Under the pieces are notes generated by a model. It was not told the DNA's origin and ran no database searches. It saw nothing but the letters and a program-made list of their open reading frames with translations. A stretch of 13,002 bases of DNA from an uncultured archaeon (GTDB lineage: Archaea; Asgardarchaeota; Lokiarchaeia; Sigyniarchaeales; SOKP01): the NCBI GenBank assembly GCA_964525635.1, contig CAZGJX010000108.1:1-13002 (forward strand), in the 5' to 3' direction. A program made the translations under genes and the position numbers. This document shows positions 8,018 through 11,885 of this stretch, piece by piece. Each line of letters begins with the position of its first letter. Position 1 is the stretch's first letter.

Positions 8018-8788
8018 ATGTATTGCAACGAATGTGGTAATGAAGTTAAAGATAAAAGTCAAAGATTTTGTGAAAATTGTGGGGCAAAAATAAATATAAA
8101 TCCAGAACCCAGTTCCATTCAGCAACATCAGCAATCTGAGGGTAGTGATATAGGTTTATTCGATTTAAGGCGAAATTATTATGTCTTAAAAGAAAAATAT
8201 TGGGATTGGGGTTCCGGTGATATTTATGATGAATTTGGGAAAATTATTGGCAGAATGAACAGAAAAATTTTCAATATCAGAAAAAAAGTTGAATTGGTCG
8301 AACTTGATGGTACTGTTTCAGCATCAATCCATTCAAAAATAATTTCAGCTCGAGGTGCTCAAGACTTATTTGATCCAAACGACAATTTAATAGCTCGTAT
8401 TAAGAAAAAAATAACATCATTTTTTCATCCTTTATTCTGGTTAGAAGATCCATTTGGAAAGAGATGGTATGAAGCACAGGGACAATTTATGGGATGGTCA
8501 TTTAAGGTTAGAGAAATTGAAAGTGGAAAAATTGTTGCTGAAATTGAAAAAGCAGATCGTTGGAGAGATTTCCTTGGTGGTTTATTAGATTTTCAAGATA
8601 CTTATGCTTTAAGGATTCTTGATAATGAAACTGACAGACGAATTTTAGTGGGATTTGTACTATCAATTGATAATGTACTACATGATAATCAACATAGTAG
8701 ACATGGTTTTGTTCGTAGAGGTCCCTTTTTTCCAAGAAGATTTCCTGGAAGGTTTCCAGGACGCTTTCCAAGAAGATTTCCTTTCTAG
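8018..8788 (+). CDS. Zinc-ribbon + LURP-one/Tubby-C (scramblase-like) domain protein with Arg/Phe/Pro repeat tail
   Basis: N-terminal YCNECG...FCENCG zinc ribbon and a Q-rich linker. Repeated beta-hairpin units (DIYDEFGKIIGRM, DLFDPNDNLIARIKKK, GKIVAEIEK), then DTYALRI and a closing helix ILVGFVLSID, as in the LURP-one/YxjI family. Confidence 0.82.
   Translation: MYCNECGNEVKDKSQRFCENCGAKININPEPSSIQQHQQSEGSDIGLFDLRRNYYVLKEKYWDWGSGDIYDEFGKIIGRMNRKIFNIRKKVELVELDGTVSASIHSKIISARGAQDLFDPNDNLIARIKKKITSFFHPLFWLEDPFGKRWYEAQGQFMGWSFKVREIESGKIVAEIEKADRWRDFLGGLLDFQDTYALRILDNETDRRILVGFVLSIDNVLHDNQHSRHGFVRRGPFFPRRFPGRFPGRFPRRFPF
8729..8785 (+). repeat. 12-bp imperfect coding tandem repeat, about 4.75 units, encoding FPRR-FPGR-FPGR-FPRR-FPF
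   Basis: TTTCCAAGAAGA TTTCCTGGAAGG TTTCCAGGACGC TTTCCAAGAAGA TTTCCTTTC, then stop TAG. Confidence 0.9.
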
Positions 8789-8808
8789 TTTATCTTTTTT
8801 TTATTTAT
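8789..8808 (+). terminator. T-rich tract, candidate terminator
   Basis: TTTATCTTTTTTTATTTT-type run immediately after stop 8788. Confidence 0.4.
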
Positions 8809-8897
8809 GAAATAAGAAAAAGAATAAATAGGAAATATTAAATATTAATTGTATCTTTTTTTTCATTTATCATAAAAATAATTTTAAAGTGATAAAA

Positions 8898-9365
8898 ATG
8901 GGTAAAGGAGCACGTAAAAAAGCGATATCATTAGGATTTACTAATTTTAGAGAAACAATATTATTTTGTAGACCAAAGAAAATTAGAATGATGTTTTCTA
9001 AATATATGCCTGATACAGCTGATGCAGTAAAGGAATATTTAAAGCAAATTGATCCAACAACTGAAGTAACTAGTTCTGGTGGTGGAAGAAATAATACTTT
9101 TTATATGTTAGCCCCTCAAGCACAATTATATGTAGAACTAGCAGATAAAATGGCTGGTATGGCAGTTCCTAATTCTAATAATCATGTGATTAAAATGAAT
9201 ATTTTTTGTAATAACGACGAATATATTCATGCAATTGCAAATACAGCATACTATAGATGGGATGACGGTCTTTTAAATCACATAGATTTAAAAAAAATTG
9301 AGAAAAAGTATAAAGTTAAGAGTGAAGATGTACTTGCTGCTTGGAAGGCAATTATAGGAGAATAA
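8898..9365 (+). CDS. Hypothetical soluble protein (probable start ATG 8898, MGKGARKK; GTG 8889 is the alternative)
   Basis: Clean 155-codon frame with protein-like alpha/beta composition, followed by T tracts. No family motif recognised. Confidence 0.8.
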   Translation: MGKGARKKAISLGFTNFRETILFCRPKKIRMMFSKYMPDTADAVKEYLKQIDPTTEVTSSGGGRNNTFYMLAPQAQLYVELADKMAGMAVPNSNNHVIKMNIFCNNDEYIHAIANTAYYRWDDGLLNHIDLKKIEKKYKVKSEDVLAAWKAIIGE

Positions 9366-9452
9366 AAATAAATAATTTTTTTAAAATTTATATTTTTTTT
9401 TTTTATTAAAACTATAAAAAATCTTTTTATTATATGATTTTTAGGCGTATCT

Positions 9453-10211
9453 ATGAATCTAAATGATAAAATCAAATTAGCTGTTAAATGGATTATAGAA
9501 TCCAAAAAATTGGTTATATTTAAAGGAGCTGGAATCTCAACACACTCAGGATTACCTGATTTTCGTGGTCCAGATGGTGTTTGGACAAGGAGAGATCAAG
9601 GAAAACCTCCACCCAAAATGAAAGTTCCTTGGTATAAAGTAAAACCAAACATGGGTCATTATGCTATTTTAGAGTTATTAAAGTTAGGAAAACTTCATTA
9701 TCTTATATCACAAAATATCGATGGATTACATGCTAAATCAGGAATTCCCTTTGATAAACTTGCTGAACTCCATGGTAATCAATATTTTATGAAATGTTTG
9801 AATTGTCATAAAAAAATGACATTTGAAGGAGCAAAATGGGATAAATCCAAATGGGAAAATGGATATAGAACAAGTTTAATTAAAATTAACCAGCCTAAAT
9901 GTCCTCTATGTAAGGGAAGAATTATTTCAAGTATAGTTAATTTTGGAGATCCTTTACCTGAAGATGAGTTATCAGAAGCAGTAAAAAGATCAAAAAATTC
10001 AGACGTTTTTTTCGTTATTGGATCCTCTTTAATTGTTACTCCTGCGGCAAATTTACCTAAAATTGCTAAAAAAACAGGAGCGAATTTAATAATCTTGAAT
10101 TTAGGAGAAACCCCCTATGATAATATTTGTGACTTAAGATTTTTTAATGATATTAATAGTGTTTTAATTCCAATTGTAGAGAAAGTAAAAGAACAAATGC
10201 AAATTAATTGA
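9453..10211 (+). CDS. Sir2-family NAD-dependent protein deacylase, class IV (SIRT6/7)-like
   Basis: GAGISTHSGLPDFRGPDGVWT, SQNIDGLH, LAELHGN (catalytic His), zinc pairs CLNC and CPLC, NFGDPLP, GSSLIVTPAA, LNLGETPYD. Confidence 0.95.
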   Translation: MNLNDKIKLAVKWIIESKKLVIFKGAGISTHSGLPDFRGPDGVWTRRDQGKPPPKMKVPWYKVKPNMGHYAILELLKLGKLHYLISQNIDGLHAKSGIPFDKLAELHGNQYFMKCLNCHKKMTFEGAKWDKSKWENGYRTSLIKINQPKCPLCKGRIISSIVNFGDPLPEDELSEAVKRSKNSDVFFVIGSSLIVTPAANLPKIAKKTGANLIILNLGETPYDNICDLRFFNDINSVLIPIVEKVKEQMQIN

Positions 10212-10226
10212 TTTGGATTTTTATTC

Positions 10227-11885
10227 TTATTTATGTACTCCATAAATCTCTTTATTTTGATCGATTGCCTTAAGGAATTTTTTTGCGTCTATATTTGACA
10301 AAGATACTTTAATTTCACTATTTCTACTTAGTGATCCTGTAAAAATAAGTTTTTCATCAGCAAAAATTTTAATGTTAGTAGATGCAAATTTTTGAGGGGC
10401 TTTAACGATAACTCTATCATTTCTTATATCAATATCTAATTTAATTCTTTCTCCTTTGGAGTATCTTTCTCTAAAAGCAGAATGAGGTTTAAAATCATCA
10501 AATCTTTTTTTAGATTTAATTGGATTAATTGGATTTAATACAATATCTTGTCCAAAGGAATATATTTCAAATACTAAATTATTTGATTTAAAATCTCTGA
10601 CTTCTACGACAGGTCTCGCTAAGTCCTTATCTGCAAAACCAGATGGAACCTTTACAGTCATCTTCACTATTAATACAGAAGATATATCACCCCCTTCAAT
10701 AAAAATAATTGTATCAATAATAGATGGGAGCATTCCAAGTTCTACCCTTCCAATAAATCTCTGGACTGCGTTAATTGCAGATGAACTATGAACTACTCCA
10801 ATCATACCAACACCAGATAACCTGAAGTCTGTATAAATTTCAAAATCTTTTGTCGTTCTTACTTCGTCAAAAATAGTAAAATCTGGTCGAACAAGCAGCA
10901 AAATATCCGCTGAATTTTCAAGATTTCCTTCTAATTTTGTATATTGAGTAATTTCTGGTTTTACTTGAAGATCCCTTACACTTTCCAAAGTTTTTACTAC
11001 CTTTTCTCTTTCCAAATAATAATTTGCTAAAGCTGCTGAAAAAGTTGATTTTCCTGCCCCTGGTGCTCCACAAACCAATATACCCTCTGCTTTATCTAAA
11101 TTCTCTTGTAAATATGAATCTATCGAATAATCAGATAATTGTAAATTAACTAAAGGTCTTACTGCAGTAATCTCTACATCATTTGAGAAAGGAGGGCGTG
11201 TTATAACTATTCTAAATTCACGCATCTGGGCGACTAATGCTCCTATTTTTTCGATTTCTATAAATGAATGATCATCATCTCTAACATATTCAACGATTTC
11301 TAAAGCGATGTCTTCAATCAACTGATTAGATATTGGGTCTTCTGAGATTTTTTCAAGACGCCATTTTCCTGGTGATCCTTTCTTTGCATAAGGTGGAAGA
11401 TATCTCTTCAAATGAACACTCATTGTGGTATCATCAAAAAAATCCAAAAGTTTTAGGTAAAGGGGTTCCTCTGTTTTTGGTTCAATTCTATCCTTAACAT
11501 ATAACACTTCTAAACCTTCAAAAATACCGATATTGCCTTGGATACGATCTGTTGTTATTAAAATTGCATTATTTCTAATTGCTTCTTGTCTAATAAGTGC
11601 GTCTAATTCACCTCCTGGAGACATCTTGATTTCTTCTCTCGTAGGACGATCGCCAATAATATATAAAATAATTTCATTTTTTTTATGGTATTCTCTTAAT
11701 TTTTTTAGAACATTAATTCCAAAAAAACCAATCTCTTTTTGAATATTGGATCGATATTCTATTTCAGCAACCACTATATTTGGAATTAAAATTTCTGGAG
11801 TATCCCCAAGATCCCCATCCTCAATTAACCGTAATATTTGTCCATTAAATATAACAGATGTATCACATACAAATTTATTACTCAT
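10227..11885 (-). CDS. pina: PINA-family ATPase (N-terminal PIN domain + PilT/VirB11-like P-loop ATPase); archaeal Holliday-junction branch-migration ATPase family
   Basis: PIN motifs VCDTSV, VAEIE, ELDALIR, LITTD. Family motifs FFDDTTMSVHLK, ITRPPFS..EITAVRP, Walker A GAPGAGKST, LLLVRPDFTIFDEVR, GVGMIGVVH, GRVELGMLP and VKVPSG...DLARPVVEVRDF. Converges on the sirtuin with a 15-nt gap. Confidence 0.92.
   Translation of the reverse strand: MSNKFVCDTSVIFNGQILRLIEDGDLGDTPEILIPNIVVAEIEYRSNIQKEIGFFGINVLKKLREYHKKNEIILYIIGDRPTREEIKMSPGGELDALIRQEAIRNNAILITTDRIQGNIGIFEGLEVLYVKDRIEPKTEEPLYLKLLDFFDDTTMSVHLKRYLPPYAKKGSPGKWRLEKISEDPISNQLIEDIALEIVEYVRDDDHSFIEIEKIGALVAQMREFRIVITRPPFSNDVEITAVRPLVNLQLSDYSIDSYLQENLDKAEGILVCGAPGAGKSTFSAALANYYLEREKVVKTLESVRDLQVKPEITQYTKLEGNLENSADILLLVRPDFTIFDEVRTTKDFEIYTDFRLSGVGMIGVVHSSSAINAVQRFIGRVELGMLPSIIDTIIFIEGGDISSVLIVKMTVKVPSGFADKDLARPVVEVRDFKSNNLVFEIYSFGQDIVLNPINPIKSKKRFDDFKPHSAFRERYSKGERIKLDIDIRNDRVIVKAPQKFASTNIKIFADEKLIFTGSLSRNSEIKVSLSNIDAKKFLKAIDQNKEIYGVHK

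Follow-up and report, generated by a model that had tools for sequence, protein, structure and literature searches.

A short-linker sirtuin of SIRT6-type architecture encoded by an uncultured Asgard archaeon

The gene considered here encodes a sirtuin (SIR2 family) and lies on the forward strand of a 13,002-nucleotide stretch of contig CAZGJX010000108.1 from an uncultured Loki-type Asgard archaeon; this whole stretch is referred to below as the window. Its closest described relatives come from two studies. Grau-Bove et al. 2022 (bioRxiv 10.1101/2021.11.30.470311, Fig. 4b) reported a clade of Asgard sirtuins, from Heimdall and Loki lineages, as the well-supported sister of eukaryotic SIRT7. A July 2026 preprint (bioRxiv 10.64898/2026.07.02.735847) then studied the three SIR2 paralogues of Ca. 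Lokiarchaeum ossiferum B35, and in its mass-spectrometry assays LoSIR2b (GNAMCCOK_01652), and not LoSIR2a or LoSIR2c, deacetylated histone-tail peptides. The activity of LoSIR2b on Loki histone-tail peptides was NAD+-dependent, while deacetylation of a yeast H4K16ac peptide was weaker. In the same work Loki and Hod SIR2 enzymes restored silencing in yeast, and the authors set a model of LoSIR2b beside the SIRT6-nucleosome structure.

The window sirtuin belongs to this family. As judged by eye from the sequence printed in the supplement, LoSIR2b, a member of the Asgard 'SIR2b' clade, shares with it a core-only length of about 250 amino acids (aa), a short linker (YRGPDGVWTRRDKGLPP...QPNSGH in LoSIR2b), the motifs LISQNVDGLH (LISQNIDGLH in the window sirtuin) and AELHGN at an 18-residue spacing, NFGD, and a WDxxKWGxGYRT insert between the two CxxC pairs, whereas the printed LoSIR2a is of the long-linker type. 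The Asgard clade of Grau-Bove et al. likewise adjoins a class IV eukaryotic family and is most probably the same clade. The short-linker family is thus already published, the window gene adding one orthologue, and the original description of class IV as eukaryote-specific, cited in the initial annotation, is outdated, given the 2022 placement beside SIRT7 and the Joint Genome Institute (JGI) labels of several orthologues, which read 'mono-ADP-ribosyltransferase sirtuin 6'. The clade bears on the origin of eukaryotic chromatin regulation, with the SIRT6 body plan present in archaeal relatives of eukaryotes, a point also in print through the 2022 phylogeny and the 2026 assays with yeast complementation. 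Added here are a length rule that parts the clade from its paralogues, the sparse occurrence of the same clade in Dehalococcoidia, a count showing that DWED does not mark class IV, and the precise loss of the gene from three congeners.

The sirtuin gene is real and intact. It is a complete open reading frame (ORF) with an ATG start, 252 aa plus a stop codon and zero internal stops, it scores 117.1 bits with Pfam SIR2 (PF02146; cut-off 24), and its N-terminus lines up with the start sites of orthologues. Its G+C content of about 29% is like that of the remaining AT-rich window (21-30% across its length). The catalytic, NAD-binding and zinc-binding residues are all present, and GAGxS, FRG, QNxD, the catalytic His in HG and the four zinc Cys are invariant or nearly so in both alignments. 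The features of the gene are as follows.

9453..10211, + strand: complete sirtuin gene, core only, with no N- or C-terminal extension (ORF, Pfam SIR2, orthologue alignment).
9525..9539, + strand: GAGIS, residues 25-29, Rossmann NAD-binding motif (G25, A26 and G27 invariant, S29 nearly so, in the 99-row alignment).
9561..9587, + strand: FRGPDGVWT, residues 37-45, FRG motif of the nicotinamide pocket in its class IV-type form (form shared by eukaryotic SIRT6-type representatives; aligns with FRGPHGVWT of human SIRT6).
9585..9641, + strand: T45-V63, a short linker of 19 aa where ordinary prokaryotic sirtuins have a helical module of 35-44 aa (linker measurement and structure model).
9711..9722, + strand: QNID, residues 87-90, NAD ribose-binding motif (N88 and D90 invariant in the 99-row alignment).
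9771..9773, + strand: His107, catalytic base in AELHGN (invariant; aligns with SIRT6 His133).
9795..9911, + strand: zinc module C115-x2-C118-x31-C150-x2-C153 with the Asgard-clade insert WDKSKWENGYRT (C115, C150 and C153 invariant, C118 nearly so, in the 99-row alignment).
9939..9950, + strand: NFGD, residues 163-166, at the site of DWED in human SIRT6 (alignment with SIRT6).
10020..10028, + strand: GSS, residues 190-192, pyrophosphate-binding turn of the Rossmann fold (G190 invariant, S191 and S192 nearly so).

Each motif quoted in the initial annotation, namely FRGPDGVWT, LISQNIDGLH (residues 84-93), P.DKLAELHGN (99-109) and NFGD, was located in the translation. The stretch between GVWT and KVKPN (RRDQGKPPPKMKVPWY) is indeed short; it counts 16 residues, the 'about 13' given at first being a small miscount. 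The insert WDKSKWENGYRT is kept in Asgard orthologues and absent from the bacterial subgroup.

In order to compare linkers on one yardstick, their length was taken from the end of FRGxxGxW to xPxxxH in all sequences. The window sirtuin has 19 aa. Its Asgard orthologues have 18-20 aa, and so do almost all of the 150 cluster representatives (50% identity) nearest to it, apart from a few long-linker bacterial types (35-37 aa). A comparison set of 80 sirtuins with the ISQN[IV]DxLH motif, taken from named GTDB genomes among the matches listed rather than as a census, gave 35-44 aa in 76 cases, while the other four (two Promethearchaeota, one Dehalococcoidia and one bacterium) had 18-20 aa; the two CobB-type paralogues in the archaeon's own genome measure 33-34 aa. 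The spacing from the Q of QNxD to the E of ExHG follows the same division, with 18 residues throughout the short-linker proteins and 16 in Asgard paralogues of the long-linker type. The rule that separates the clade is therefore a linker of 18-20 against 35-44 aa together with a spacing of 18 against 16 residues, and this pattern does not arise by chance, since it is conserved across hundreds of homologues.

Sequence and predicted structure both place the protein closest to SIRT6. Searched against all PDB sequences, it matches human SIRT6 best (E 2e-48, 168 bits), in a nearly gap-free alignment of residues 11-244 with residues 38-268 of the 355 aa of SIRT6, followed by Sir2-Af2 (154 bits), Sir2Tm (141), Sir2-Af1 (121), SIRT7 (93), SIRT3 (87), SIRT4 (77), SIRT5 (70) and SIRT1 (69). 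An AlphaFold2 model built from the 99-row alignment without templates reached a pLDDT (predicted local distance difference test) of 95.9, and replaced a discarded single-sequence model (pLDDT 43). Segment 33-66 of the model holds a single short helix (43-48) and a turn, so that the helical module of the small domain is reduced in the predicted structure as it is in the sequence, and no CobB-like helical module is predicted. Foldseek ranked 33 chains of human SIRT6 first (template-modelling score 0.82-0.85), ahead of Sir2-Af2 (0.74) and Sir2Tm (0.69). The class U enzymes Sir2-Af2 and Sir2Tm (PDB 1MA3, 1YC5), like the archaeon's own long-linker paralogues, differ from the window sirtuin by a full helical module (linker 33-44 aa) and the 16-residue spacing, and the small domains of the two enzymes fit its model less well (root-mean-square deviation 4.3 A). 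The proposal of SIRT6-type architecture thus holds at both levels.

Human SIRT6 itself (class IV; PDB 3K35, 3PKI, 3ZG6, 8F86, 8G57) departs from the window sirtuin in several respects. It carries an N-terminal extension (the structural match excludes residues 1-25) and a C-terminal one, both absent from the 252-aa archaeal protein; in the alignment it has one Cys only at the second zinc pair, where the window sirtuin has a canonical CxxC; and it reads DWED in place of NFGD. Because of this last difference the protein had been regarded as intermediate, a view that fails when eukaryotic sequences are counted. Among 61 eukaryotic SIRT6-type representatives the commonest state of the site is NFGE (18), with HFGE in 6 and DFGQ in 5, and DWED, DWDD or DWDQ appear in 11. 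DWED is accordingly a derived state of a subset and not a class IV hallmark, as NFGE is the commonest state and DWED with its variants is confined to these 11. The second zinc Cys pair is also variable in the 61 representatives, mostly with 2-4 residues between the two Cys and with at least 8 in seven of them.

We then placed the protein in a maximum-likelihood tree (IQ-TREE, LG+C20+F+G4 with posterior mean site frequencies) of 94 rows and 251 columns. Of the rows, 24 are short-linker sequences of Asgard archaea (eight family codes), 14 are short-linker sequences of other prokaryotes, 36 are eukaryotic, and 20 are long-linker sirtuins, the archaeon's own paralogues among them. Ultrafast bootstrap values are rough (correlation 0.964 at the end of the search, where 0.99 was wanted), and the SH-like approximate likelihood ratio test agrees on the branches quoted. 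The short-linker sequences, with all 36 eukaryotic SIRT6-type rows among them, are parted from the long-linker, class U/III-type sirtuins with support of 100/99. Five eukaryotic cluster representatives were traced to Branchiostoma (named SIRT6), Diphasiastrum, Willaertia, Mantamonas and Pelomyxa. When SIRT7 orthologues were sought among the 150 nearest representatives, none of the six eukaryotic ones tested against the PDB scored as SIRT7, all six scoring higher with SIRT6, by 11-57 bits. The eukaryotic rows form a single clade (100/100, stem 0.93) with the window sirtuin outside it. The protein is thus a class IV-type sirtuin positioned outside the eukaryotic crown clade, and it falls neither within class U/III nor within a bacterial clade.

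Inside the short-linker clade the branching is a polytomy of Asgard subclades, a subclade with a named Dehalococcoidia sequence, some other sequences and the eukaryotes. The tree of Grau-Bove et al., by contrast, puts the Asgard clade together with SIRT7, and in it SIRT6 is nested among eukaryotic sequences. Constraining the window clade to group with eukaryotes cost 10.4 log-likelihood units (approximately unbiased (AU) test, p 0.29), so that the grouping is neither recovered nor rejected. A further AU test joining eukaryotes with all Asgard-labelled rows gave p 0.014 and was set aside as uninformative: the constraint split a pair supported at 100/99 (an Asgard second paralogue and a metagenome sequence), and the group was chosen post hoc. 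The initial annotation had suggested an Asgard relative of the SIRT6/7 ancestor; the Asgard host and the class IV kinship stand, while an Asgard origin of SIRT6/7 is, on this tree, no more than possible. The fuller scenario, in which eukaryotic SIRT6 and SIRT7 were inherited vertically from the Asgard short-linker clade and the patchy Dehalococcoidia copies are secondary transfers, is put forward tentatively, as somewhat less probable than its negation; if true, SIRT6 architecture and histone-directed deacylation would be older than eukaryotes.

Conservation in Asgard archaea is wide but patchy. Hundreds of homologues from Asgard metagenome-assembled genomes are 68-76% identical, and the nearest are named Promethearchaeota, Lokiarchaeota, Hod-, Hermod- and Heimdallarchaeota. 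Across 251 genomes of the phylum, with a short-linker orthologue defined as a match above about 44% identity, orthologues occur in eight Asgard family codes, f1 (45 of 54 genomes), f6, f20, f23, f17, f28, f2 and f15, and in 0 of the 59 genomes of family f8. The closed 4.4 Mb genome G210, of the same order, has no short-linker orthologue by this query, its best match being 40% identical and carrying an internal TAA. Clear bacterial-form orthologues were found in 13 of 201 Dehalococcoidia genomes searched, the 201 including the genome from which the query of this search came. Single loci vary further. One orthologue from another Asgard family (L088, G199:C181:6053-6796) is intact except for an in-frame TAG at the Trp of GVWT (FRGPDGV*TRRD), for which a sequencing error, recoding and recent pseudogene formation are all conceivable. 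Tandem pairs of the short-linker sirtuin occur at G207:C9:775441-777123 and G240:C190:72308-73957, one copy of each pair having internal stops, and in three proteins (P0121, P0129, P0130; one of the Asgard clade, two of the Dehalococcoidia-like subclade) the short-linker domain follows an N-terminal extension of 160-290 aa.

Judged by its residues and architecture, the window protein is quite probably an active, stand-alone NAD+-dependent protein lysine deacylase of the LoSIR2b orthologue type, within a short-linker clade of SIRT6 architecture to which, as part of the same reading, eukaryotic class IV sirtuins would be more closely akin than to any other prokaryotic ones. Following established sirtuin chemistry, acyl-lysine and NAD+ would occupy the cleft that separates the Rossmann domain from the small zinc domain, nicotinamide would be released with His107 acting as base, and the products would be O-acyl-ADP-ribose and free lysine. 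By analogy with LoSIR2b, the substrates would most likely be lysines of small basic chromatin proteins such as histones and Alba, and may include other proteins. The archaeon's own genome (4.45 Mb, 100% complete) encodes five short histones (69-74 aa) and four Alba proteins; it gave no match to a MOZ_SAS (MYST) acetyltransferase, a result that is uninformative as control genomes gave none either. Since the terminal extensions of SIRT6, which serve chromatin and nuclear targeting, are absent, only the core could direct the protein to chromatin, if it is targeted there.

Several observations weigh against this reading. The deacetylase that was assayed is LoSIR2b, a protein from a different genus, and roughly half of its residues are identical to those of the window protein by an estimate made by eye from print. 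The alignment behind the structure model is rich in eukaryotic SIRT6-type sequences, which may have pulled the model towards SIRT6, and the tree was built without labelled SIRT7, class I and class II sequences. The five histones have MAKK-type N-termini only, not the long lysine-rich tails of the preprint. No neighbour is conserved across Asgard families among the more distant orthologues, and the neighbourhood is therefore mute on substrates. Finally, the gene is cleanly absent from three genomes of the same genus and is therefore dispensable.

Some of these points also feed the strongest alternative, in which the protein has a SIRT6-like shape and yet is in function an ordinary CobB-type regulator whose main substrates are metabolic enzymes (e.g. 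AMP-forming acyl-CoA synthetases) and not chromatin proteins. Its top NCBIfam matches are indeed CobB-type models (NF040867, 198.6 bits; NF001753, 196.1 bits), it has no chromatin-targeting extensions and its genome no long-tailed histones among those found, the gene was lost in close relatives with no visible replacement, and sirtuin substrates cannot be read from sequence. However, every NCBIfam model matched by the protein, the CobB equivalogs included, stays below its cut-off (320 bits for NF040867, 243 for NF001753), two long-linker CobB-type paralogues are already at hand in the genome for that role, and the counterpart LoSIR2b was the paralogue that deacetylated histone tails (bioRxiv 10.64898/2026.07.02.735847). 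We consider a CobB-type role unlikely, while giving it more weight than any other rival.

If the gene had recently been acquired by horizontal transfer, from a eukaryote or bacterium, or if the contig were a binning contaminant, it would be uninformative on Asgard biology. Such an event could account for its absence from the three same-genus genomes, and one short-linker subclade does contain a named Dehalococcoidia sequence, with the orthologues in that class noted above. In these three genomes (L129-L131; G156:C100, G113:C279, G019:C177) the flanks are nevertheless kept: compared with window 8018-11885, orf273, the PIN-domain ATPase, LOR and PHP occur in order, the sirtuin and orf158 are missing, and LOR lies directly beside the ATPase, its end about 170-240 bp away. 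The PIN-ATPase is 82-83% identical in these genomes and 72% in another genus, hence the contig belongs to the genus. Because the order PHP, LOR/Tubby-like, SIR2 and convergent PIN-ATPase is common to other genera of the family, the congeners have lost the sirtuin. With orthologues across eight Asgard families, a position outside both the eukaryotic clade (100/100) and the Dehalococcoidia-containing subclade, and a G+C content matching the window, a foreign origin is very improbable. That the protein is a defence-type SIR2 NADase (as Thoeris ThsA, DSR, SIR2-HerA or SIR2-pAgo) partnered by the PIN-domain ATPase encoded tail-to-tail with it, 15 bp apart, is scarcely credible, as PADLOC models match neither protein, the deacylase core of the sirtuin is complete, zinc module and catalytic His included, the ATPase is of the housekeeping archaeal PRK13764/PINA type (645 bits), and the adjacency is gone beyond close kin, with three congeners keeping the ATPase without the sirtuin and no conserved defence partner across Asgard families.

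The ATPase gene itself (window 10227-11885, - strand) encodes a PIN domain and a PilT-like ATPase domain, NCBIfam PRK13764 being its matching model, and also matches the Holliday-junction branch-migration ATPase PINA, below the cut-off of that model. Between LOR and the sirtuin lies a 158-aa ORF (window 8889-9365, + strand) that matches nothing in Pfam, NCBIfam or PADLOC. All syntenic loci lack a counterpart, relatives having only about 170 bp at this place, and the ORF is either spurious or an insertion specific to the lineage.

In total the genome holds four intact sirtuin genes and a broken one. Besides the window gene and the two long-linker paralogues, the fourth intact gene encodes a divergent 393-aa form (G000:C47:21965-22420; L004 1006-2184). 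This form has GAGLS but lacks an FRG motif, reads HIHG at its catalytic site, and carries a proline-rich unit (PPPSPREDIA.QAAPH) that is repeated in its N-terminal region. The broken one (G000:C171:3435-3737, L005) is a sirtuin fragment with five in-frame stops, one TGA and four TAA, and is probably a pseudogene.
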